Of a stretch of 64,000 nt of DNA, positions 3,437 to 55,925 are shown one piece after another. Source of the DNA: an uncultured Acidobacteriota bacterium (GTDB taxonomy: Bacteria > Acidobacteriota > DATKUA01); assembly GCA_964408025.1 (NCBI GenBank), contig CAYOXX010000004.1, forward strand, positions 4,148-68,147, read 5' to 3'. Under the pieces are notes generated by a model, which was not told the origin of the DNA, searched no databases, and saw only the letters and a list, made by a program, of their open reading frames with translations. Both the position numbers and the translations under genes were made by a program. Position 1 is the first letter of the stretch. Each line of letters begins with the position of its first letter.

Positions 3437-3610
3437 CGCACCCCTCCCGTCCGATTCCCCAACACTGTGCGGACAGTTTAGCAAACCCAAACGCGGCGGC
3501 GCACCAACCGCTCTAAGGCAAATGCGTTTCCCGGAGAACGAGCACCGCTTGACGGTCAACGAGCGGTTACGATATAACCTGAGTGGATCCCGTCACTTCA
3601 AGGTCTCCTT

Positions 3611-4402: not shown

Positions 4403-6126
4403 AATCAATTCAGTCTCGCCTGGTTCCCCTGGCACTAGTTGCCATCGCGCTATCGCTTTCGCTGGCGCTCACAACCACACATACGTCCGCTCAGGAGGCG
4501 GCCGAAGAACCTGCCGATGTCATCCTCATCAACGGCACCGTATATACCGTCGACTCGGAATTCAGTGTCGCCGAGGCGGTAGCCGTACGCGGCAACCACA
4601 TCATCGCAGTCGGCACAACCGAGGAGATTCAGCCGCTCGCCAGCCCCGCAACGCTCCTTATAGACCTGGACGGCCGCACCGTGATACCCGGTCTCGTTGA
4701 CGCCCACGCCCACCTCTTCGGCTACGCCGCCAGCCTCGAGCGGCTCGACCTGGTCGGCACCATCAGCGCCGAGGAGATCGCCGAGATGGTGGCCGCCAAG
4801 GTCCAGGAGATCGAACCCGGCGCCTGGATTCTCGGCCGCGGCTGGGACCAGAACGACTGGCCCGAGCAGCACTTCCCGACTCACGAAATCCTCGATAACG
4901 CAGCTCCGTACAACCCCGTGCTGCTGGGCCGCATCGACGGCCACGCTAACTGGGCCAACTCCGCGGCGATGGAGATCGGAGGAGTCACGCGCGACACTCC
5001 CGATCCCGACGGCGGCGAGATAATCCGCGACGCCGAGGGCAACCCCACCGGCGTATTCATCGATAACGCGGAAAACCTCATTGCTGAACATGTGCCGGAG
5101 ATGCCGCGCGCGAGGCTCAAGATCCTCCTCGCCAGGGCGGTGCGCAACTGCCTGGCCGTCGGCCTCGTCGGCGTCCACGACATGGGCGGCGGACCCGCCA
5201 ACATCGCCCTCACCAGAGAACTTATCGACGAGGGGAACTTCCCGTTCCGCCTCTACTTCAACCTCAGCTCGCATTTAAGCAATCTCGACGAACTATTGGC
5301 CGAAGGTACACAGAGCTATGGCGACGGCCGCCTGTCGGTCCGCAGCGTCAAGGCGTTCATCGACGGCGCCCTAGGCTCGCGCGGCGCCGCCCTGCTCGAG
5401 CCGTACAGCGACCGCCCAGAGAGCACGGGGCTGCTGATGACCACCCCTGAAGAGCTGCAAGAGCTGACCGAGCGCTGCCTGCGGGCCGGTTTCCAGGTCT
5501 CCACACACGCCATCGGTGACCGCGGCAACCGCATCGTTCTCGACGCCTACGAGGCGGCCCTCGAGGCGGTGCCGACGCCCGACGCGCGCCTGCGCATCGA
5601 GCACGCCCAAATTCTCGCACCCGAGGAGATCCCGCGATTCGCGCAGATCGGCGTCCTGCCCAGTATGCAGCCGACTCACTGCACCTCCGACTTCCCCTGG
5701 GCTCTCGACAGGCTCGGCGCGGAACGGGCTCGGGGGGCATACGCCTGGCGCAGCCTGCTCGACACCGGAGTCATTATCCCCTGCGGCTCCGACTTCCCAG
5801 TCGAGCGGATTGACCCGCGACTCGGCCTCTACGCCGCCGTAACCCGCCGGCACGCAGACGGCTCGCCCGCGGACGGCTACTTCCCCGAGCAGCGGATGAC
5901 GCGCGAAGAAGCACTGAAGGGATTCACAATCTGGGCCGCATACGCCGCCTTTGCAGAGGACGAGCGCGGCAGCCTCGAGCCGGGCAAGCTGGCCGACCTG
6001 GTAGTGCTCGACCGCGACATCATGCGCGTGCCGCCGCAAGAGATCCTCGAAGCCGTCGTAATACTGACCATGGTCGACGGCCGCATCGCCTACCGACGGG
6101 GCGCCAACGGTAGCGATACGGAATAA
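4399..6126 (+). CDS. secreted metal-dependent amidohydrolase (Amidohydro_3 family)
   Basis: It has a signal peptide, the metal ligands HAHLFGY...IDGHANW, and a C-terminal VVLDRD motif typical of Amidohydro_3 enzymes. Confidence 0.65.
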   Translation: MKSIQSRLVPLALVAIALSLSLALTTTHTSAQEAAEEPADVILINGTVYTVDSEFSVAEAVAVRGNHIIAVGTTEEIQPLASPATLLIDLDGRTVIPGLVDAHAHLFGYAASLERLDLVGTISAEEIAEMVAAKVQEIEPGAWILGRGWDQNDWPEQHFPTHEILDNAAPYNPVLLGRIDGHANWANSAAMEIGGVTRDTPDPDGGEIIRDAEGNPTGVFIDNAENLIAEHVPEMPRARLKILLARAVRNCLAVGLVGVHDMGGGPANIALTRELIDEGNFPFRLYFNLSSHLSNLDELLAEGTQSYGDGRLSVRSVKAFIDGALGSRGAALLEPYSDRPESTGLLMTTPEELQELTERCLRAGFQVSTHAIGDRGNRIVLDAYEAALEAVPTPDARLRIEHAQILAPEEIPRFAQIGVLPSMQPTHCTSDFPWALDRLGAERARGAYAWRSLLDTGVIIPCGSDFPVERIDPRLGLYAAVTRRHADGSPADGYFPEQRMTREEALKGFTIWAAYAAFAEDERGSLEPGKLADLVVLDRDIMRVPPQEILEAVVILTMVDGRIAYRRGANGSDTE

Positions 6127-46009: not shown

Positions 46010-47587
46010 CTAGTAGCCGGGCAGCTTGGAGAAGTAGAAGCTGTGGTACTGTCCACTGCTCCCCTCGAGCCTGAAGAGGTTCAGGCTGCGCAGGGCGGGA
46101 CCGAAAGCGCGCAGCAGCGGCCCGCCGCTCCATATTTTCCCCTTGTAGTTTGACCCCGCCAGGCGGTCGACCTGGCCGCTGCCGGGGTCGAAGGAGTAGC
46201 AGTCGAGCTGCAGCTCCTGCCAGGTGCGGGAGCCGTGAAGCTCTCTATAATACCCGGAACGCGAGTGGGTGATGAGGACGCGGCCGCCGTAGGTAAGCAC
46301 AACATAGTTGGAGAAAAAACTGAAGGTTTCATAGGATAACCGGTCAGGAGTGCCCCAATACGGCCTGAACCAGGGGGCTGCCTTGAACTTGGCACGCTTC
46401 CCCATCCTCCCGCCTTCGGCGGAGATCTGCTGATAGAAGTAAGTGTAACTCTTTGAGTTGCTTCCTATATATGGGCCTTCAGCGGGCGCGGCATGGGTGT
46501 AAAGCAGGTAGAGAGGCTCGCCCCCCTGCGTCGGGCTCGGGGGCACGCTAACGCGCGGCAGGAACACCGGGCTGACGAATGTTGGGTAGTGGATATTCGT
46601 CCTGTCGTTGGCGATCTTGCGCATCCTCATATCGAAGGAGTTTCCACCTTGGTCCGGTGTCACCCGCAGGACGTGGACCTGGTAGCCGATCTGGTCCACA
46701 TAGTCTCGCGGGTCGTAGGGCATCCGCTTCAGCAGCGTTACGACACCGGGAACCATCCAGCTCTCGCCGTTCCAGGCCGGCCTGTAGGGGCGGAAGAGGC
46801 GGTAATTGCCGCCCTTCGGCAGCCTCACGTCGGCAGCGCCCGGCTCCTGCAGCACGCCGGTCGAGGAGACCTCCATGAAGTAGGCCTCCCCCGCACGTCT
46901 CCCATAGAGGTCGTCGGAACTCTCATTTATGTTGGCGCCGGCGAACACGCCGACCACGTCGCCGCGCACTCCCGCGGTGAGCCAGAGCATTTGGTAGTAC
47001 ATGTCCTCCGGAGCGTTTATCTCCAGCAGTGTCTCGAAGTCGGTGGTCAGCTTGCCGGATGCGTTGAACCTTGCCGCTGCGAAGCGGCCCACGTCGCTTA
47101 CGCCCTCGGGGTAGTAGGCGATGAGCAGGAGCCCGTGATCGGGCGAGGGCGCCTGTTCGGCGAACCAGCAGGCGGCGGCCTGGCTTATCCTGCCTCCGGT
47201 CATCGTCAGCACGTCGGTCGCGGTGCCGACTTTGCCCTTGCTGTTGAGTGTGAAGGAGCGGAGCGTGTAGATGTCGAGCGACGGTGGCACATCCGTCTCC
47301 TCCATGTTCAAGGCGAAGACGACGCTGGAGTCGGCGCCCACCACTGCCCAGGCCAGCAACCGCACGTGGTGCTCGAAGCCCGTCACCTTGACCTTCTTGA
47401 GCTTATACTTCGCCGTCCCCGGCGCGGCCACGTCGTCCGCCGCCGCCGCACCCGCCAGCAGCGCCAGCGCTGCCATTACGCCCACAAAACTGCGGATAAG
47501 CTTGCTTTTCATGGCGAATTCCCCACTAGCCTGATAAAACTCGTTGAATATAGTCAGCAATGTAGCCGTTGTTAGACGCGATGGCAA
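46010..47587 (-). CDS. hypothetical secreted protein, tandem paralog A
   Basis: It has a signal peptide (LALLAGAAAADD). It is about 75% identical to the next gene along its full length, and no domain is recognised. Confidence 0.55.
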   Translation of the reverse strand: MPSRLTTATLLTIFNEFYQASGEFAMKSKLIRSFVGVMAALALLAGAAAADDVAAPGTAKYKLKKVKVTGFEHHVRLLAWAVVGADSSVVFALNMEETDVPPSLDIYTLRSFTLNSKGKVGTATDVLTMTGGRISQAAACWFAEQAPSPDHGLLLIAYYPEGVSDVGRFAAARFNASGKLTTDFETLLEINAPEDMYYQMLWLTAGVRGDVVGVFAGANINESSDDLYGRRAGEAYFMEVSSTGVLQEPGAADVRLPKGGNYRLFRPYRPAWNGESWMVPGVVTLLKRMPYDPRDYVDQIGYQVHVLRVTPDQGGNSFDMRMRKIANDRTNIHYPTFVSPVFLPRVSVPPSPTQGGEPLYLLYTHAAPAEGPYIGSNSKSYTYFYQQISAEGGRMGKRAKFKAAPWFRPYWGTPDRLSYETFSFFSNYVVLTYGGRVLITHSRSGYYRELHGSRTWQELQLDCYSFDPGSGQVDRLAGSNYKGKIWSGGPLLRAFGPALRSLNLFRLEGSSGQYHSFYFSKLPGY

Positions 47588-47896: not shown

Positions 47897-49435
47897 CTAG
47901 TAGACGGGCAACTTGGAGAAATAGAAGCTGTGGTATTGTCCATTGCTCCCCTCGAGCCTGAAGAGGCTAAGGCTGCGCAGGAGGTAAGGGTAGGGGTAGC
48001 CGAAGGGGCGGATCAGCGGCCCGCCGCTCCACACCTTTCCCTTGTAGTTTGCCCCCGCCAGGCTATTGACCTGGCCGGTGCTGAGATTGAAGGAGTAGCA
48101 GTCCAGCTGTAGCTCCTGCCAGGTGCGGGATCCGCCGCTGAGCTCGGTATAGTAAGCGGAGCGCGAGTGGGTGAGGAGGGCGCAGCCGCAGTAGGTAAGC
48201 ACAAGATAACTGGAGAAAAAACTGAAGGTTTCTCTGGATTTGCGGTTGGGAGTGCCTAAATACGGCCTGAACCAGGGGGTTGCGTTGAACTTACTACGCT
48301 CTCCGATCCTTTCGCCTTCGGCGGAGATATGCTGATAGAAGTAGGTGTATCTCTTTGAGTGGGGACCTACAAGCGGGCCGTTTGCGGGTGCGGCATGGGT
48401 ATAAAGCAGGTTGAGCGGCTCGCCTTCCTGCACCGGGCTCTCGGTCATGGGAGTGTGCGGCAGGTACGGCAGGAACACCAGGCTGACGTATGTCGGCCAG
48501 GGGACATTCGTCCTGTCGCTGGCGATCTTGTGCATCTCCATATCGAAGGAGTCCCCGGCCTGGTTCGGTGTCACCCTTAGGACGTGGATCTGGTAGCCGA
48601 TCTCGTCCACCCAGTCTGGGCGTTCCCAGGGCACCCGCTTCAGCAGCGTTACGACACCGGGAACCATCCAGCTCTCGCCGTTCCAGGCCGGTCCGTAGGG
48701 GCGGAAGAGGCGGAAATCGCCGTCCCTCGGCAGCCTCACGTCGGCAACGCCCGGCGTCCGCAGCACGCCGGTCGAGGATAACTCCATGAAGTAGGCCTCA
48801 CTTGCGCGACTGCCCCACAAGTCGTCGTAGTCCATCTCTAATATATCGGCGCCGGCGAACACGCCGACCACGTCACCGCGCACTCCCGCGCTGAGCCAGA
48901 GGTCTTGAAAGACCATGTCCTCCGGAGCGCTTATCTCCAGCAGTGTCTCGAAGTCGGTGGTCAGCTCGCCGGATGCGTCGAAGCTTGCCGCCGCGAAGCG
49001 GCCCACGCTTCTTTCATCGTCTAAGCCTTCGGGGTGGTAGGCTATGAGCAGGAGCCCGTGCGCGGTCGAGGGCGTCGACTGGTCGTCGAACCAGAAGGCG
49101 GCTGCCTGGCATACCCTGCCTCCGTCCATCATCAGCAGGTCGTTCGAGGTGCCGACCTTGCCCCTGCTGTTGAGGGTGAAGGAGCGGAACGTGACGATGT
49201 CGGGCGCCGTCGACCTCAACGGCTTCTCAGTGTCCAAGGCGAAGACAACGCTGGAGTCGCCCACACCTGCCCAGGCCAGCAATTGCACCTGGTGCTCGAA
49301 GCCCGTAACCTTGACCTTCTTGATCCTATAGTTCGCAGTCCCTGATGCGGTCACGTCGTCCGCCGCCGCCGCACCAGCCAGCAGCGTCAACGCTGTTAAT
49401 AAGCCAATAAAACTGCGGATAAATTTACTTTTCAT
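47897..49435 (-). CDS. hypothetical secreted protein, tandem paralog B
   Basis: Same family as 46010-47587. The 5' and 3' ends are about 90% identical at the nucleotide level. Confidence 0.55.
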   Translation of the reverse strand: MKSKFIRSFIGLLTALTLLAGAAAADDVTASGTANYRIKKVKVTGFEHQVQLLAWAGVGDSSVVFALDTEKPLRSTAPDIVTFRSFTLNSRGKVGTSNDLLMMDGGRVCQAAAFWFDDQSTPSTAHGLLLIAYHPEGLDDERSVGRFAAASFDASGELTTDFETLLEISAPEDMVFQDLWLSAGVRGDVVGVFAGADILEMDYDDLWGSRASEAYFMELSSTGVLRTPGVADVRLPRDGDFRLFRPYGPAWNGESWMVPGVVTLLKRVPWERPDWVDEIGYQIHVLRVTPNQAGDSFDMEMHKIASDRTNVPWPTYVSLVFLPYLPHTPMTESPVQEGEPLNLLYTHAAPANGPLVGPHSKRYTYFYQHISAEGERIGERSKFNATPWFRPYLGTPNRKSRETFSFFSSYLVLTYCGCALLTHSRSAYYTELSGGSRTWQELQLDCYSFNLSTGQVNSLAGANYKGKVWSGGPLIRPFGYPYPYLLRSLSLFRLEGSNGQYHSFYFSKLPVY

Positions 49436-49974
49436 TGCGGAATCCCTCTCTAGCCAAATAAAAAATCGTTAAACCAGCAACCTGGCGCCTGTTAGACTTG
49501 AATTCAAGCGTGAGCACGCGCCTCTACGTATTTGCAGATAAATCCATAGTCGCCCCCCCCAGAGGAAATCCAATTCATCCCCTCCAAGGAATTGGTAGAA
49601 AAGCAATTAAAAGCCTAATGATCAAGGCAAAGAGTCCGAGCCCAGGTTATTAGGCTCTATGCAACCATATTGCTTTTCAACCAGACTAAAACAGTAAGTA
49701 GCTTATTAGATATTAGGGAGGCTGGAAGTAACGGTGGTTACACCATGATTGATACTAATCTCTTGGCTATCCTGCGACACCGCATATTTATGTGGCCATG
49801 CGCGGGATTCATTTCAGGTCGTCCGCGAGGACGGCAGCCTGTAATGGGTGGGATCCTGAGGGGGGCCTTTACTTGTCCACCGTCGCTGAAGCTTTGGCGG
49901 ACTTGTCCGCCGTAGCTTTAGCGGAGGCGGATGCCCCCCTCTCTTCGCTGGCAGTCAATATCGGCAGAGGGAAG

Positions 49975-50260
49975 TAACCCACAGCTCCCGTTTTCACCAC
50001 AGAGACCTCAGAGACCACAGAGGAAGCGATTGTAGGGGAGTCCTGAATTTATCCGCCTCTGGCGGAGGGCTCCCGTGCCATTGTAGGGGAGTCCTTAAGG
50101 GCTCCCGTTTTCACCACAGAGACTCGAAGACGCGCCGTGGTGGGCACAGAGACCACAGAGGAAGCGATTGTAGGGGAGTCCTTTAGGGCTCCCGTTTGAA
50201 AATGAATCACTGTTTCGGGGGCGCTAAAGCACCCCCCTACACCAAGATTAGCGCATTATA
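49975..50260. repeat. REP-like hairpin repeat cluster (three copies of the caccacagag...tgtaggggagtcc unit)
   Basis: It is directly repeated within the cluster and shared with 45683-45735. Confidence 0.6.
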
Positions 50261-50564
50261 AAAGCTTGTGTTGGCTTCTTAATCCGCCGTCCTCACCGCA
50301 CACCTCGGCGCGCCCTGGCGGGGCGTATCGACGCTACCCCTGGTCGGCGTCCGCCGACCTCGGGTAGTCCTTCCTCGACCTGAACTCGATGATCCCCACC
50401 GGGCACACCGCCGCTCAACGCCCATCCCGCACGCACTTCTCCGTATCTACATAAAAACCAATCGCTGCTCCCTCCAGAGAAAATACAATTCAGCCCTTCC
50501 AAGGGATCGCCAGAATTGCACTCAAAAGGTGCAAATGCACGGTGGAGCGTAGACATGTAGCGGC

Positions 50565-50748
50565 AACTGTAACGACGACCTGTAGCGGCGGCTGTAGCGG
50601 CGACTTTTAAGTCGCCTACTCCCGCCGCCGGCGGGAGCAATTCATCGCGCAGTGGCGCGATTAGTCGAGCTGAAGCTCGACGCTACCTGCCGCTCCTTTC
50701 CTGTAGCGGACACCTTTAGGTGGCCTGGTCGGCCTAAAGGCCGACAAA
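50565..50748. repeat. composite REP array (ctgtagcggcggctgtagcgg / gcgattagtcgagct..agctcgacgctac / cacctttaggtg / gtcggcctaaaggccgac)
   Basis: It is an array of short perfect hairpins. The same blocks recur in a different order at 55745-55925, and the last block recurs again at 61338-61361. Confidence 0.65.
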
Positions 50749-50751
50749 TAA

Positions 50752-51042
50752 TTATGCAAACACTCCGTCCAGATTCTTAGCGGACTTCAGCCTTTCATAA
50801 GTCGTGTAGCGCAAGTTCTGCGGAGCCCTGACTTTCCCGCCTTTGATCATTTTAATCGGCTTTATCTCCTTGGCCGGCTCGGCGAAGTAGATAATCACCT
50901 TGCCCGAGTCTTTGTATGGCTCGATGCTCTTTACGGGAGCGACATGAGTGATCGCCGAAATCGGGGCTACCTGGTACGAGGCTATATACTTGATCTGTTC
51001 GATCATACTGGCGTGAATGCGTACCTTGTACCAGCAACACAA
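50752..51042 (-). CDS. hypothetical small protein encoded in AT-rich DNA
   Basis: It is AT-rich, about 85-96 aa (MIEQIKYIASYQ...YTTYERLKSAKNLDGVFA), and I recognise no motif. Confidence 0.35.
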   Translation of the reverse strand: MCCWYKVRIHASMIEQIKYIASYQVAPISAITHVAPVKSIEPYKDSGKVIIYFAEPAKEIKPIKMIKGGKVRAPQNLRYTTYERLKSAKNLDGVFA

Positions 51043-51086
51043 GTCATGGGTCTACATTGATCATTCTCTATCGACATTTTCTATAA

Positions 51087-51284
51087 TTACTTTTTGCTTT
51101 TCATTTTCTTGCACTCCTCACACAACGGTAAATTCCCCGTGCCAGTTTTTCTATATTTTCTTTCTATGTTATTTCCTTTTGTGCAGTCACCATAAATATG
51201 ATGCACAGTACCGTGTTTAGAGTAATAAGAATTTACTTTTCTTGGCATTTCACACTCCTTGATATCAATCAACAACAGATTCAA
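51087..51284 (-). CDS. hypothetical small Cys-containing (zinc-ribbon-like) protein
   Basis: It reads MPRKVNSYYSKHGTVHHIYGDCTKGNN...LPLCEECKK, with paired Cys/His. It is AT-rich. Confidence 0.3.
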   Translation of the reverse strand: MNLLLIDIKECEMPRKVNSYYSKHGTVHHIYGDCTKGNNIERKYRKTGTGNLPLCEECKKMKSKK

Positions 51285-51308
51285 CAGTTATACTACCCAC
51301 TATTTAGC

Positions 51309-51572
51309 GGTGCCCGGGGATGAGGTCCCTATTCATAGTAATACCTCATTTTGGCTTGTGCCGCCTATGCGGACGGACTCTCGTACCGTCTTGTCGAGTA
51401 TGACCTCTGACAGGTACTGTCATTGGTCCTCGACGTGGCGGCTTCTCAGAACATCTGTTCTTCGATTTTGCCATAAAATAGCACCTCCTTTCTAGGTGAT
51501 AGCTTCACCGTGCCGTTTCAGTGTTACTATCCCGAGTCAATGGAGGTTCCCCGGGCACCTAAACTCATTCTA
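51309..51572. repeat. element bounded by a perfect 12-bp inverted repeat (GGTGCCCGGGGA ... TCCCCGGGCACC), 240 bp apart
   Basis: The arms lie at 51309-51320 and 51561-51572. No ORF spans the interior, which is mixed-GC. Confidence 0.5.
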
Positions 51573-51657
51573 ATGATTTTTCTTACACTTGTCAAGCCGA
51601 AGTATTCCAAGGTGACTCTTTAATGATAGGATATTGAAAAGTTATTTTAAATCACTA

Positions 51658-51756
51658 CTATGATACGCTCTCCTCGACTATCGCTATTTCTTCATCTGTC
51701 AGACCGTAAAGCTCGTAGACGAGCTGGTCGATCTGGCGGTATCTTGTTTTTCCCAT
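51658..51756 (-). pseudogene. vestigial copy of a Type IIG RM enzyme C-terminal tail (MGKTRYRQIDQLVYELYGLTDEEIAIVEESVS*)
   Basis: It has host-like GC. It shares the 17-nt identical run ctcgtctacgagcttta and the motif LVYELYG(L/M)TDEEI with the 3' end of the RM gene at 52648. Confidence 0.55.
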
Positions 51757-51803
51757 TTAATTATATCATCTTCTTTACAAATTATCTAGCCATATAAGAT
51801 TAT

Positions 51804-52613
51804 TCATATGAGTTTTAATTCATGCAATTTTTCTGTTATTTCATCTCTATAATTTCTCGGAACTATCAAGCCATAACCAACAACCTCTCCATTCTCTCCT
51901 TTTCTAAAATTATCGAAATACTTTCGAAAATACTTATTAACATTTTCATCCCTTTCACCTGTAAAACACCACTTAAAAAACTCTCCCGTTGAGCCTACTA
52001 AACAATCGTTAATCTGAAGTGCAAAAGAAACCCTTGTAGAAGTACAAACCAAACAAGGACATGCACAAAACCTTCTAAGTGGTTTTACAATATTTTGTTC
52101 AAATCTATACCCTTCATAATATGCTTTTTGATATACATTCAAATATTCCATTATTTTAATTTTTGAATCAGGCAACCAATCAAATACAGTGTCCAGATAT
52201 GGATAATCATCTTTTTCTTTCAATAAATTATAATTCTGCTCCAAATCAAATGATAGTCTCTGCAATATATTTGTAAATGACCATTTCCAACTTTCCGCAC
52301 GATATTCTTTAGACCCTTTCCATACAAATGACATTATAAGTGTCATATTTAAATCTTTTGGCAATTTAAAGATGTCAGATCTTAACTCTGGTATTTTTTC
52401 CCTTAAATCTCTAAGTTTTTCACATTCCTTATCCATATAATTATATTTAATAACATCAGATAAGTCAAGCTGATATTTTTTCTTTATTCTTGCTACAGAT
52501 AAATCTAATTTACGTAACATTGACCTTGGTATATAATATCCCCCAACAAGCATTCCATAATCTAAGTCATATTCATCGAGAAAACAAATAATGCTCTCAG
52601 AAAGCGTACTCAT
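51804..52613 (-). CDS. hypothetical protein (269 aa) encoded in AT-rich DNA immediately downstream of the RM gene
   Basis: It has about 30% GC, no recognisable motif, and starts 35 bp after the RM stop on the same strand. Confidence 0.5.
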   Translation of the reverse strand: MSTLSESIICFLDEYDLDYGMLVGGYYIPRSMLRKLDLSVARIKKKYQLDLSDVIKYNYMDKECEKLRDLREKIPELRSDIFKLPKDLNMTLIMSFVWKGSKEYRAESWKWSFTNILQRLSFDLEQNYNLLKEKDDYPYLDTVFDWLPDSKIKIMEYLNVYQKAYYEGYRFEQNIVKPLRRFCACPCLVCTSTRVSFALQINDCLVGSTGEFFKWCFTGERDENVNKYFRKYFDNFRKGENGEVVGYGLIVPRNYRDEITEKLHELKLI

Positions 52614-52647: not shown

Positions 52648-55638
52648 TTATTCTGTATTATTCTCAACAATTTTAATTTCCTCATCCGTCATACCATAAA
52701 GCTCGTAGACGAGTTTGTCAAGATGGCGATCAGTGGCCTCGATCTGGCGCTGGAGTCGTGTTATTTCGTTTGGATCTTTTGACATCTCAATTCTCATATT
52801 TTTGTCTATAAGAATCTCTACTAATTCAACTATTCTATCATATATTATCTTATTATCTACCTTGTCCACGGTGGGGATAGGCAGCGATTTTAATTGACTT
52901 ATTTTTATTTGTGGAAAGGCATCATGGAACTCATCATAATATGCTCGAATAAAAAAGGAAATAAGACGGCTACCGAGTATCCCAGCAATAAATTGTGCTT
53001 TGAATTTTCCATTTTTAGGAATAGTTATATAGACTTGTTGATCCGCTACTGAATTAGTTTTTTCAATAGTAACAACTAGACGATCACCAAGAATCTTGCG
53101 TGAATAAACCCTTTCCCCTTGGAAAAATTCAGGTTTTCTTGGCTCTGCAAGCCATAGACCATATCTAATATATTCAGTAGGTTTGGGAGGTGTAAATCTG
53201 CGAAGGTCACGGCCGTAAATAAATGCTCTATAACCTTCTCCTCCCAATTTGCTATGATATGGCTTTTCATCTAAGTCTCTTTTGATTTGAGGCCCTTTAC
53301 CAAACGCCGTTTGTCCATATCCTCCTAAGCGGTATGAGTGTACTCCACGAGTAACATAAGCAAATCTCTGTAATTCCGGATAACTATCCTTTAATCTTTC
53401 TACCAAAATAGCGCTAGTACTATCTAAAACTGTTGAAATTGGTCTGGAACCATCAAGATATAGTTTGACCTCATGTGTGGCAATCTCAATAATATTTCCA
53501 TTACACATATTCTTAATTGAAAATATATCCGATGGCTTAGGGCGTTTTTGTAAAGTGTAAATAATTGTATCAACCGTCAGACCTGAAAAAACATTAGCCC
53601 CTGGAGTCGTTATGCACAAATCATTACTATAACTAAGAATGAAAGATCTCGTGCTATATGAATATGTATTAGAGAGCCATACGTTAGGTACTATTAAGCC
53701 TACCCGTCCGAAATTGCGACTAAGCATGTGGGCTTTCTCCATAAATATAGAAAACATGTCAAGTTGATAAGGTGAACTCTTATAAATTCTACCAAGATAA
53801 ATCTTAGACTCTTCGGTGATATTTAGATCCTTCCAATCTCTCCCAAAAACATACGGCGGATTCCCTATAACTACGTCAAACCCTCCCTTCTTCATGATTT
53901 CGGGGAATTCTGTGTCCCAGTCAAATGGGTTGATGCGGCGGAGCTGCTCGTCGTCGAACAGGACTCCCTGGTGGTGGTCGAAGAAGTCGGTGCCGATGAG
54001 CGAGTTTCCGCACTTGATGTTGCCGCCCAGGTCGGGCAGGGCGCGCTCACGGAAGAGTTTTAGCTGCTGCTCGAGCGATTCCTTGCTCTCGCCCTCGAGG
54101 GCCTTGAGCAGCAGGTTGAGCTTGGTGACCTCGACGGCCTGGGGGTCGATGTCGACGCCGTGGATGCAGTCGAGCAGTAGTCGCTTTTTTTCGGCCGTGG
54201 AGAGGAACCACTCGCCTCCCCTGCCGCGGAAAACCTTGTTCTTGTGCTTTTCGGGATTGTTGGCGGCGTACCAGTCGCGGCAGTAGTCGAGCAGGTACTG
54301 GTAGGCGCCGATGAGGAAGGAGCCGGAACCGCATGCGGGGTCGAGTATCTTGAGCTTATGAACATGGCTCGCGGTCAGGGGTTTATTAGATTTCTTACCC
54401 TTGACGGCCGAGGTTGAACCTTCCACAAGCGGGCGGCCCGCCGCGGCGGGCTCGCCCCTACAGCCCTCGCACAGTTTGCCGACGGTGTTTTTGACGATGT
54501 AGTCGACGATGTAGGTGGGGGTGTAGTAGACGCCGCCGGCCTTGCGGACCTCCGGCTTCTCCTCGACCTTGGCGTGGTGTGCGGGCGTGAGGCGGATCAC
54601 CTTGCCGAGGAACTGCTCGTAGACGTGGCCGAGTATGTCGGCGCCGATCATCGAGAACTCGTAGGGCGACTCGGGGTAGTAGAGGCCCTTGAAGACGGTT
54701 TTGAGTGCGGCGTCGTCGATCTCGAGCTCGTGCGTTAGGCGGTCGGGCTCGGTGGCGGCGCCGCGGTCCTTCTCGAAGTGGAAGAGGCCGGAGTTGTAGC
54801 GCTCCTCGGCGCGGTCGAAGAGCTCGAGCAGGCGCCCGTAGGCGTTGGTGCCGCTGCCCAGGGCCTCGAGGCGGCCGTAGCCCTCGATGCCGCGGTCCTC
54901 GCAGATGCGCAGGAAGATGATGCGGTCGATGGTGCGCTGGACTGCGAAGTTTAGCTCGTGGACGGAGAGGCGCGGGTTGCGCAGTGCGATGTTGCGGGCC
55001 AGCAGGTCGCGCCAGCACTCGATCTCCTTGAGGAACTCCTTATCGACCGGCGCGGTGCCGCGAATGCGCTTGGATTCGGCGTAGCGGTCGAAGCTGCCCT
55101 GCAGGACCGCCTCCTTGCCGAAGAGGCCGTGGATGTCGTCGAACTGCTCGGGGTACTGCTCGAAGCCGATGTACTGGACGCGGGCTGTCGAGACCTTGTC
55201 ACTCTCGTGCGGGCGCACGCGGCAGTCGTAGACGGCGAGCTCCTCGAAGTCGGTGAGGATAGAGAGTTTCAAGTTGGCGCTCCAGCCGTAGCGGCGGAGC
55301 TGGTAGGGCAGGTGCGGGTTGTCGCGGATGTTCAGCGCCGGCTTTTTTGCCTCGACGAAGAAGATCTTTTCGGAGCCGATGCGGAAGCAGTAGTCGGGAG
55401 CCTTGGTGCCGCCGGCGACCTTGATCGAGTCCTCGTGAATGACGTCTTTGTACTGCTCCGACGTGTGCGACTTGTTGTAGATGTCCCAGCCGAGGGCCTC
55501 GAAGAAGGGGTCGATGAACTCGACGCGCAGTTGCGCCTCATTGTAGGCCGGGCTCTTAAAACCCTTCAGCCCGCGCCGGAAGGCCTCTATTAATTCCTCG
55601 GTCCGGCGCAGGCCCTCGTCTTTCGGCACTTGGAACAT
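52648..55638 (-). CDS. Type IIG restriction-modification enzyme (fused PD-ExK endonuclease plus gamma-class N6-adenine DNA methyltransferase plus C-terminal TRD)
   Basis: A PD-(D/E)xK-like motif (PDYCFRIG...IFFVEAKKP) lies at aa 81-99. SAM motif I (ILDPACGSGSFL) is at aa 431-442 and catalytic motif IV (GNPPYV) at aa 592-597. A C-terminal region of about 400 aa follows, ending with the tail LVYELYGMTDEEI. The 996-aa size fits the MmeI-like class. Confidence 0.8.
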   Translation of the reverse strand: MFQVPKDEGLRRTEELIEAFRRGLKGFKSPAYNEAQLRVEFIDPFFEALGWDIYNKSHTSEQYKDVIHEDSIKVAGGTKAPDYCFRIGSEKIFFVEAKKPALNIRDNPHLPYQLRRYGWSANLKLSILTDFEELAVYDCRVRPHESDKVSTARVQYIGFEQYPEQFDDIHGLFGKEAVLQGSFDRYAESKRIRGTAPVDKEFLKEIECWRDLLARNIALRNPRLSVHELNFAVQRTIDRIIFLRICEDRGIEGYGRLEALGSGTNAYGRLLELFDRAEERYNSGLFHFEKDRGAATEPDRLTHELEIDDAALKTVFKGLYYPESPYEFSMIGADILGHVYEQFLGKVIRLTPAHHAKVEEKPEVRKAGGVYYTPTYIVDYIVKNTVGKLCEGCRGEPAAAGRPLVEGSTSAVKGKKSNKPLTASHVHKLKILDPACGSGSFLIGAYQYLLDYCRDWYAANNPEKHKNKVFRGRGGEWFLSTAEKKRLLLDCIHGVDIDPQAVEVTKLNLLLKALEGESKESLEQQLKLFRERALPDLGGNIKCGNSLIGTDFFDHHQGVLFDDEQLRRINPFDWDTEFPEIMKKGGFDVVIGNPPYVFGRDWKDLNITEESKIYLGRIYKSSPYQLDMFSIFMEKAHMLSRNFGRVGLIVPNVWLSNTYSYSTRSFILSYSNDLCITTPGANVFSGLTVDTIIYTLQKRPKPSDIFSIKNMCNGNIIEIATHEVKLYLDGSRPISTVLDSTSAILVERLKDSYPELQRFAYVTRGVHSYRLGGYGQTAFGKGPQIKRDLDEKPYHSKLGGEGYRAFIYGRDLRRFTPPKPTEYIRYGLWLAEPRKPEFFQGERVYSRKILGDRLVVTIEKTNSVADQQVYITIPKNGKFKAQFIAGILGSRLISFFIRAYYDEFHDAFPQIKISQLKSLPIPTVDKVDNKIIYDRIVELVEILIDKNMRIEMSKDPNEITRLQRQIEATDRHLDKLVYELYGMTDEEIKIVENNTE

Positions 55639-55744: not shown

Positions 55745-55925
55745 CGGCATGTAGAGGCCGTAGCGGCGGCTGTAGCGGAGATTGTAGCGGCCACCTTTAG
55801 GTGGCCTAGTCGGCCTAAAGGCCGACGCTACCGGCTGCATATTCCCGCCTGCGGCGGTAGCAACTCATCGAGCAGTTGCGCGATTAGTCGAGCTCCGCCT
55901 GAGGCGGATAAATTCAGCTCGACGC
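55745..55925. repeat. composite REP array homologous to 50565-50748
   Basis: It contains gtagcggcggctgtagcgg, cacctttaggtggcctagtcggcctaaaggccgacgctacc and gcgattagtcgagct...agctcgacgctac. Confidence 0.65.

Follow-up and report, generated by a model that had tools for sequence, protein, structure and literature searches.

What is a 32-codon open reading frame (ORF) that repeats the end of a restriction-modification (RM) gene doing some 0.9 kb beyond the stop of that gene? The question is raised by a stretch of 64,000 nucleotides (nt) from an uncultured Acidobacteriota bacterium, the whole of which is termed "the window" below. In its initial annotation, this ORF was proposed to be the original 3' end of a Type IIG RM gene, left behind when an AT-rich cassette was inserted upstream of it. 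Comparison with related loci makes it very likely that the fragment stems from the RM 3' end of this lineage and has been displaced; it is best read as a non-functional recombination scar, not as a working gene. That a one-step import displaced the original end and left this scar has about even chances. The argument rests on the following elements, with GC3 standing for the GC content at third codon positions and TRD for the target recognition domain:

52648-55638, minus strand: the RM ORF of 996 amino acids (aa), a Type IIG restriction-methylase with the C-terminal end ...RHLDKLVYELYGMTDEEIKIVENNTE

53851-55638, minus strand: resident, host-like 5' part of the RM gene (nuclease and gamma-type N6-adenine methyltransferase, to motif IV NPPY), GC 0.623, GC3 about 0.9

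52648-53850, minus strand: AT-rich 3' part of the RM gene, with the TRD (TaqI_C) and the tail in use, GC 0.364, GC3 about 0.24

52663-52728, minus strand: RM-attached tail copy, the upstream direct repeat (D4), 77% identical to 51673-51738

51804-52613, minus strand: 269-aa accessory ORF for a divergent DUF3800-like protein, GC 0.30

51757-51803, minus strand: AT-rich spacer of 47 nt closing the low-GC block, GC 0.19, without homology to the sister allele (L001, see below)

51674-51740, minus strand: putative vestigial tail of the resident RM gene, encoding RQIDQLVYELYGLTDEEIAIVEE

51658-51756, minus strand: the 32-codon ORF lying over this relic, translated as MGKTRYRQIDQLVYELYGLTDEEIAIVEESVS, of which the ATG and the last five codons are junction sequence

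The RM protein matches HSDR_N, N6_Mtase, MmeI_Mtase, Eco57I (8e-35) and TaqI_C (2e-17) in Pfam, is called REase_MTase_IIG by PADLOC (E 5e-191), and has motif I (DPACGSGSF) and motif IV (NPPY) readable in its translation. By sequence, it appears to be a Type IIG enzyme, a single polypeptide with a nuclease region at the N-terminus, a methyltransferase of the gamma N6-adenine type and, C-terminally, a recognition domain; the nearest solved structures, CamA and the BREX proteins PglX/BrxX, are distant only. The gene is a compositional chimera: GC3 stays at about 0.9 over codons 1-580 and is about 0.25 from codon ~600 on. Low GC then runs unbroken from 53850 to 51757, through the TRD (0.364), the tail core (0.36), the 269-aa gene (0.30) and the spacer (0.19), and the fragment does mark the downstream edge of the AT-rich block, as first proposed.

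The fragment begins 892 nt past the RM stop and is separated from the 269-aa gene by only the 47-nt spacer. Its resemblance to the RM C-terminal tail, from which its description started, is borne out: the direct repeat covers 66 nt (51673-51738 versus 52663-52728) at 77% identity, with several amino-acid changes. Homology to RM tails stops after GAGGAG at 51674, and the other limit lies at about 51741-51757; it possibly reaches ~15 nt further upstream, with a small indel. When 120 family proteins are used as queries, 109 match 51661-51738 by their last ~26 residues (best E 6e-8), and no other RM-like sequence is found outside the RM gene in the 64 kb. Since homology is limited to the C-terminal tail and has no upstream coding continuity, the fragment is probably a vestigial RM 3' end, that is, a pseudogene. 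The ATG of the ORF is a by-product of the junction, and the 32-aa peptide alone has no family match in a Pfam search. A longer ORF to which the fragment might belong was sought on either strand and rejected: only a 45-aa plus-strand ORF, for which no protein library was searched, overlaps it, and the 109 family proteins read the stretch as an RM tail.

Less can be drawn from the exact 17-mer CTCGTCTACGAGCTTTA, on which the initial annotation leaned. The window has exactly two copies of it, at 51707-51723 and 52697-52713, each on the minus strand, and 0.00 matches are expected in shuffled sequence, even allowing 2 mismatches. In-register exact runs of at least 17 nt are nevertheless found in 3.6% of the unrelated family tail pairs and in 9 of the 92 comparisons that involve the fragment. 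The run is real and marks both copies as family tails, but it is not diagnostic of direct DNA descent, and its use as proof of such descent or of gene conversion was rejected on these grounds.

The evidence that ties the fragment to this lineage comes from a sister allele. A scan of GTDB species genomes and JGI metagenomes with the N-terminal 596 aa as query returned a single other allele, carried by two contigs that are 99.9% identical to each other (L001, ENA ERZ25073496, and L068, JGI); the exact window RM protein was found on JGI contigs identical to the window. The RM N-terminus of the sister allele is 91-93% identical to that of the window at the nt level through ...AATCCGCCGTATG / ...GGGAATCCGCCGTATG (the NPPY motif), where identity ends at window position 53850. 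From there to 52782 the two alleles have no nucleotide homology, and the sister TRD is a different one, likewise AT-rich, with 28% aa identity to that of the window. The sister RM tail (3447-3513) encodes QIDQLVYELYGLTDEEIAIVE and is identical to window 51740-51674 at 61 of 67 nt (91%) and at all 21 amino acids. A relative whose RM gene ends in the sequence of the fragment, the lack of which would have refuted the proposal according to the initial annotation, is thereby at hand in L001/L068.

Downstream of its RM gene, the sister allele carries a 324-aa gene with a TIR-like effector domain, followed by a vestigial tail of its own (4700-4762), which is 87% identical to the window fragment and 93% to the sister RM tail. 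The two tail copies around the 324-aa gene span 59-63 nt and both have an AAATGA stop/start junction; at the vestigial copy, the stop overlaps (AAATGA; ATGA) the start of a 333-aa gene. A truncated 3' end of this same gene persists in the window:

50749-51037, minus strand: 3' remnant of the 333-aa gene, 289 nt, 87% identical in nt and 92.6% in aa to L001 5490-5778

In the sister allele, the relic and the start of the 333-aa gene overlap; as the 3' end of this gene lies downstream of the window relic, the window relic sits where the stop of the resident RM gene is expected. It thus appears to occupy the syntenic position of the resident gene end, and the intact gene of a close relative ends in the same sequence. 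Together with a resident-like composition (see below), this upholds the proposal of an original 3' end left behind. The two relics differ in detail: the sister relic has no ATG and other boundaries, and its left end starts at QLVY, where the window relic retains RQIDQ.

Could the fragment instead be all that is left of a tandem second Type IIG gene, otherwise deleted? An unrelated locus (L005), in which an orphan tail lies beside an RM N-terminal fragment and suggests a decayed second copy, gives this idea a precedent. In the window, however, there is no further RM-derived sequence outside the RM gene and there are only 47 nt between the 269-aa gene and the relic, and the sister relic is fused to a downstream gene start as a true gene end would be; a tandem gene is very improbable.

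A functional role is more improbable still, either as a translated 32-aa peptide mimicking the C-terminal helix of the enzyme or as a recombination site switching the RM 3' end. The JGI gene callers did annotate the 32-codon ORF, TAGATA-17-TATAAT at 51788-51760 is promoter-like and has a TG extension, and the 269-aa gene could in principle be deleted by way of the direct repeats. The AT-rich stretch, however, shows no clear enrichment of promoter-like hits (12 versus 7.1 +/- 2.5 expected), no Shine-Dalgarno sequence is seen by eye upstream of the ATG, and the ATG and the C-terminus are junction sequence that the sister relic, with its other boundaries, does not share. At least nine independent contigs of the window allele are 100% identical, without deletion or switch variants. 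The repeats are direct, not inverted, and no recombinase domain is found in the locus ORFs scanned against Pfam; phase variation was rejected for these reasons.

Composition bears on which of the two tails is the resident one. In all, 143 related loci were collected, and composition statistics were made on 85 full-length RM genes. The GC3 of their TRDs is on average 0.21 below that of the N-terminus and 0.18 below that of the C-terminal tail, the window and the sister allele being the most extreme; the contrast within the window gene (0.89 versus 0.24) is the largest of all 85. As the TRD lies below both flanks, TRD import seems to be the norm in this family, and the pattern suggests that a low-GC pool of TRDs is in circulation among these Type IIG genes, with exchange taking place between conserved flanks.

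The GC of the 66-nt tail core, in contrast, follows the host, being correlated with N-terminal GC3 (r = 0.72). For an N-terminal GC3 of 0.89, the family regression gives an expected core GC of 0.55 +/- 0.065 and an expected core GC3 of 0.79 +/- 0.15. The fragment core (GC 0.50, GC3 0.64) is within this resident expectation, a test of limited power on so short a segment, and the two sister tail cores (GC 0.515 and 0.485, GC3 0.64 for both) fit it as well. The RM-attached tail core (GC 0.36, GC3 0.41) is 2.9 and 2.5 standard deviations (SD) below expectation, and a tail that is 2.9 SD too AT-rich is therefore taken as imported. In the simplest reading, the AT-rich DNA would have brought the present tail along, and the fragment would be the resident tail displaced by it. 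The "host-like GC" first ascribed to the fragment holds in this sense of a family expectation, but not in absolute terms: GC is 0.475 for the 32-codon ORF and about 0.50-0.515 for the 66-nt core, against 0.61 for the window. A simple duplication within the lineage is unlikely because the window tails differ at 23% of their 66 nt, whereas fourfold-site divergence between the RM N-termini of the two strains is only 0.10.

These observations can be assembled into the following scenario. The ancestral gene would have had a GC-rich N-terminus, then a recognition domain and lastly a tail with the end ...RQIDQLVYELYGLTDEEIAIVEE..., and its stop would have overlapped (ATGA) the start of the 333-aa gene. 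Foreign low-GC DNA would then have recombined in, bringing a different recognition domain with its own tail and stop, and the DUF3800-like 269-aa gene. The left crossover would have used homology in or just before the conserved NPPY motif (about 53850-53900 in the window), and the right end would have been made by illegitimate joining just upstream of the resident tail, at about 51741-51757. Such an import would have removed the former recognition domain, leaving the final ~70-80 nt of the former gene stranded. Later, a second rearrangement would have replaced the 5' two-thirds of the 333-aa gene (51038-51673). From homology, synteny, composition and junction positions, all of which are observed, we infer the order of these events, a single import rather than two, and a mechanism that combines homology on one side with illegitimate joining on the other.

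Several points weigh against this scenario. The GTDB and JGI scans contain neither an uninterrupted GC-rich RM gene, as the initial annotation expected of relatives, nor an empty site in which a single tail abuts an intact 333-aa gene; the sole close relative has a different AT-rich TRD and a vestigial tail as well. The searches turned up no donor, the best TRD-plus-tail protein match being at 65-67%. For the whole AT-rich block, the sole match among plasmids was 63 nt of tail in a Haloarcula plasmid, and among phages there was none. The fragment is 87-91% identical to the sister tails and ~83% identical to the tails of unrelated GC-rich hosts; since this gap is only slight, its orthology is argued mainly from synteny. 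The RM-attached tail itself is in parts 87-91% identical to the sister tail, and the codon string GTCTACGAGCTTTA is found only in the four tails of the window and the sister allele among 48 tails (from the first 64 loci), so that the RM-attached tail is possibly a mosaic, or the product of patchy gene conversion, and not purely foreign. A segment-wise comparison addressing the orthology of the RM-attached tail with the sister tail was undecisive, as unrelated GC-rich tails score alike. Lastly, the 269-aa gene may have arrived separately, since its homologues are never RM-linked, and the relic may be older than the present cassette, since the sister allele has a relic with a different cassette.

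The first of these last two possibilities calls for a closer look at the 269-aa gene. Its protein has no Pfam match of its own, but PF12686 (DUF3800) is matched by two of its seven homologues, and the family conserves an N-terminal FLDExD and a C-terminal LQxxD motif. An AF2 model (pLDDT 81.6) gives only weak matches in the PDB, the top one being RNase H2. The family is small, with 7 clusters in 5.8 billion proteins. Elsewhere (loci L148-L155), the homologues form solitary single-gene islands with a GC 0.15-0.25 under that of both flanks, in unrelated GC-rich genomes and varied neighbourhoods, and never beside an RM gene, which suggests that the 269-aa gene moves on its own. DUF3800 genes are known to accompany diverse structured RNAs, on either strand (PMC5737381); in the window, Rfam places a DUF3800-VII RNA at 49791-49875 on the plus strand (48.1 bits versus a gathering threshold of 36.2, E 2e-7), 1.9 kb from the 269-aa gene.

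A history in two events would accordingly consist of a TRD swap by double crossover, from the NPPY region to the tail start, and of an insertion of the DUF3800-like gene into the tail with a ~66-nt target duplication; the RM-attached copy would later have diverged or been partly overwritten, and the insertion of the TIR-like gene in the sister allele would seemingly be alike. The sister allele lends itself to this account, as the tail copies flanking its 324-aa gene are 93% identical, host-like and both provided with the AAATGA junction. So does the behaviour of the 269-aa homologues as independent single-gene low-GC islands, as do the window RM tail segments that are 87-91% identical to the sister tail, and insertion that duplicates a long stretch of the target, but without mobility genes, is a described rearrangement class (PMC2853133). 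The single cassette of "TRD plus 269-aa gene" first proposed is therefore not demonstrated, the TRD swap and the insertion looking separate in the sister allele. Yet the window copies are only 77% identical, against a neutral divergence of ~0.10 between the strains, the RM-attached core is a compositional outlier throughout, and the missing empty site deprives this history too of a comparison. Two separate events are, on this evidence, unlikely, though a credible course.

The second possibility is that the relic predates the split of the strains. An older insertion would have produced the order tail, gene X, relic and 333-aa gene, and the variable block (TRD, tail and accessory gene) would later have been swapped whole by homologous recombination, with the N-terminus and the relic/333-aa gene as flanks. 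In favour of this, the relics of the two alleles share their relative position, and the flanks are of identical kinds around cassettes that differ; identity between the alleles varies by segment, at 97%, 91-93% and 87%, which makes the locus a patchwork; and the presence of both in one sample would give the chance for exchange. The different left ends of the relics (RQIDQ in the window, QLVY in the sister) argue for independent events in the two alleles instead, and the window relic is at least as close to the functional sister tail (91%) as to the sister relic (87%). An older relic is accordingly rather unlikely. Import in one step, import followed by a separate insertion, and an older relic all agree in taking the fragment as a displaced RM 3' end.

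Both RM alleles were observed in one metagenome (L001 and L158, both from ENA sample ERZ25073496) at coverages of 10.7x and 8.3x; because both are in the same sample, the population probably carries two methylation/restriction specificities at one locus. Short-read Logan contigs of the window allele (L159-L162) start at window 53959-54021, 110-170 nt upstream of the NPPY junction; breaks at this place are expected of an assembly graph in which the shared N-terminus forms an inter-strain repeat.

On its other side, the fragment appears to be bounded by the second rearrangement:

51038-51673, minus strand: unrelated segment of 636 nt replacing the 5' two-thirds of the 333-aa gene, with a promoter-like site, a structured stretch and two small ORFs

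Neither L001 nor any of the other loci fetched has homology to this segment. Beyond it, a 96-aa ORF (50752-51042, minus strand) is the truncated 3' end of the 333-aa gene, which is intact in the sister allele and in the same order and orientation. As 28 of the 37 differences between remnant and sister gene fall at third codon positions, the truncation is probably recent, or else the gene was still intact when most change took place. After the 333-aa gene, the sister allele has an EVE-PD-(D/E)xK gene, which is absent from the window.

The 636-nt segment has features of its own. A near-consensus sigma-70-type site (TTGACA-17-TAGAAT, 51595-51567, minus strand) is followed by a stretch of ~250 nt closed by an 11-nt inverted repeat (GGTGCCCGGGG...CCCCGGGCACC). 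On the minus strand, 51290-51590 folds with a minimum free energy of -120.2 kcal/mol, versus -77.5 kcal/mol for shuffles (z = -8.35), and Rfam returned no match for this stretch or for the fragment. It may represent a new structured RNA, possibly tied to the neighbouring DUF3800-like gene; aligned with the region downstream of a 269-aa homologue (L152), it showed no homology, and this candidate match was dropped. Inside it lies a very basic 42-codon ORF (51346-51474) with a strong Shine-Dalgarno sequence. Directly after it comes a 53-aa ORF (51087-51248, minus strand) that has AAGGAG as its Shine-Dalgarno sequence and shows a His/Cys pattern (H..H...C......C..C), and for which no family match was found; together, the 53-aa ORF and the structured stretch occupy the segment.

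Further features surround the locus:

50557-50745, strand not given: cluster of REP-like repeats beside the locus, with the direct-repeat families D1, D3, D5 and D13 and a partner at 55760-55894

Such REP-like repeats bound the RM locus at both ends in both alleles, and more copies lie at 49984-50197. One copy is included in a stretch of ~108 nt that is in frame inside the sister RM ORF (L001 1661-1768), between methyltransferase motifs, where the window has only 24 nt (54439-54462); four distant homologues (P0002, P0014, P0017 and P0021) have unrelated in-frame insertions at this same site. Just downstream of the RM island, two tandem paralogues on the minus strand (46010-47587, 525 aa, and 47897-49435, 512 aa) are ~82% identical in nt, with signal-peptide-like N-termini and without a Pfam family. 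The 512-aa gene is 97% identical between the two alleles.

Orphan tails are not confined to this locus. On the same strand, 0.2-4.3 kb downstream, they are found at about nine of the 84 complete RM genes, in several phyla; the loci counted are L001, L005, L043, L045, L093, L119, L143, L146 and the window. The further orphan tails, all on the same strand as the RM gene, are located as follows:

L005: 17077-17322

L043: 4458-4548 and 5375-5470

L045: 13664-13728

L093: 15741-15823

L119: 13638-13782

L143: 5466-5560

L146: 4192-4283

L025: 14160-14366

These orphan tails are 78-94% identical to their cognate RM tail. At several loci, the stop of the remnant overlaps the start of the next gene, and the accessory gene placed directly after an RM gene often overlaps the RM stop. 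Such family matches as the genes between or after the remnants have are to conflict-system domains or membrane proteins, with HNH, PIN, HEPN and an MCU-like membrane protein above Pfam cut-offs, and Schlafen/AlbA_2, DUF6602 and RelE/barnase-like families below them; the stacked genes also include a TIR-like effector, and in L025 a DUF3800 gene with a DUF3800-X RNA follows the orphan tail. A tentative generalization, possible but doubtful at this stage, is that the conserved tail is a reusable landing pad, recombination within it serving to stack effector modules behind the RM gene and to exchange them. If true, each module would be preceded by a tail remnant carrying a ribosome-binding site or an overlapping start, and the window fragment would be the spacer of an array, not a one-off scar; if confirmed, low-GC TRDs and orphan tails between stacked effectors would offer a simple homology-based route for the growth of defence islands beside RM genes.

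Among known systems, rhs/cdiA polymorphic-toxin genes have orphan C-terminal modules downstream. The likeness, by analogy, is that a conserved sequence bounding a variable 3' module recurs downstream, where each of its copies stands before a displaced variable gene, and the related RM loci resemble these genes in their stacks of tail remnant and effector gene; under the landing-pad hypothesis, defence islands would be built analogously to rhs/cdiA orphan arrays. Here, in contrast, the downstream genes are separate ORFs, often translationally coupled, and not fused toxin domains with immunity genes, and what survives of the old gene in the relic is the conserved end instead of the variable part, so that the parallel is an analogy and not a membership. 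With phase-variable RM specificity loci (the inverting hsdS shufflons and the tvr locus; PMC6265443), the window shares spare parts of a specificity gene beside the expressed one, but it differs from a shufflon in having no inverted repeats, no spare TRD and no recombinase domain in the scanned ORFs, and in its identical contigs.

The arrangement also comes close to two types of rearrangement already described for RM genes. Allelic TRD substitution in Type IIG genes between close relatives is the first (PMC2853133), next to domain movement (PMC3077401): related genomes share the nuclease-methyltransferase part and the flanks and have unrelated C-terminal TRDs, with a break at a conserved motif, here NPPY. 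The locus qualifies as such a case, with 91-93% identity up to 53850, TRDs at 28% aa identity and a downstream 512-aa gene at 97%; it differs in its visible relic of the old 3' end and its accessory gene, and in coming from an uncultured bacterium seen in metagenomes only. The second type comprises RM-linked insertions that lack mobility genes and have long, variable target duplications on either side (Furuta et al. 2010, PMC2853133). Here too, a gene lies between direct repeats of >30 bp that may derive from the target, without transposase or integrase, the DUF3800-like 269-aa gene being the only ORF of the inserted unit. The sister allele fits this type well (59-63 nt at 93%), whereas the window repeats (66 nt, 77%) differ in composition; in addition, the published insert is an RM system itself, with a known empty site, while here the RM tail is the target. 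The relic fixes the downstream edge of a presumably specificity-changing replacement to within ~15 bases and, with the sister allele, makes a clean natural example of TRD acquisition by a Type IIG gene, with a probable crossover at NPPY and the old end left behind. The locus is thus a further example combining both known types of RM rearrangement, with an unusually sharp compositional contrast and a preserved relic.

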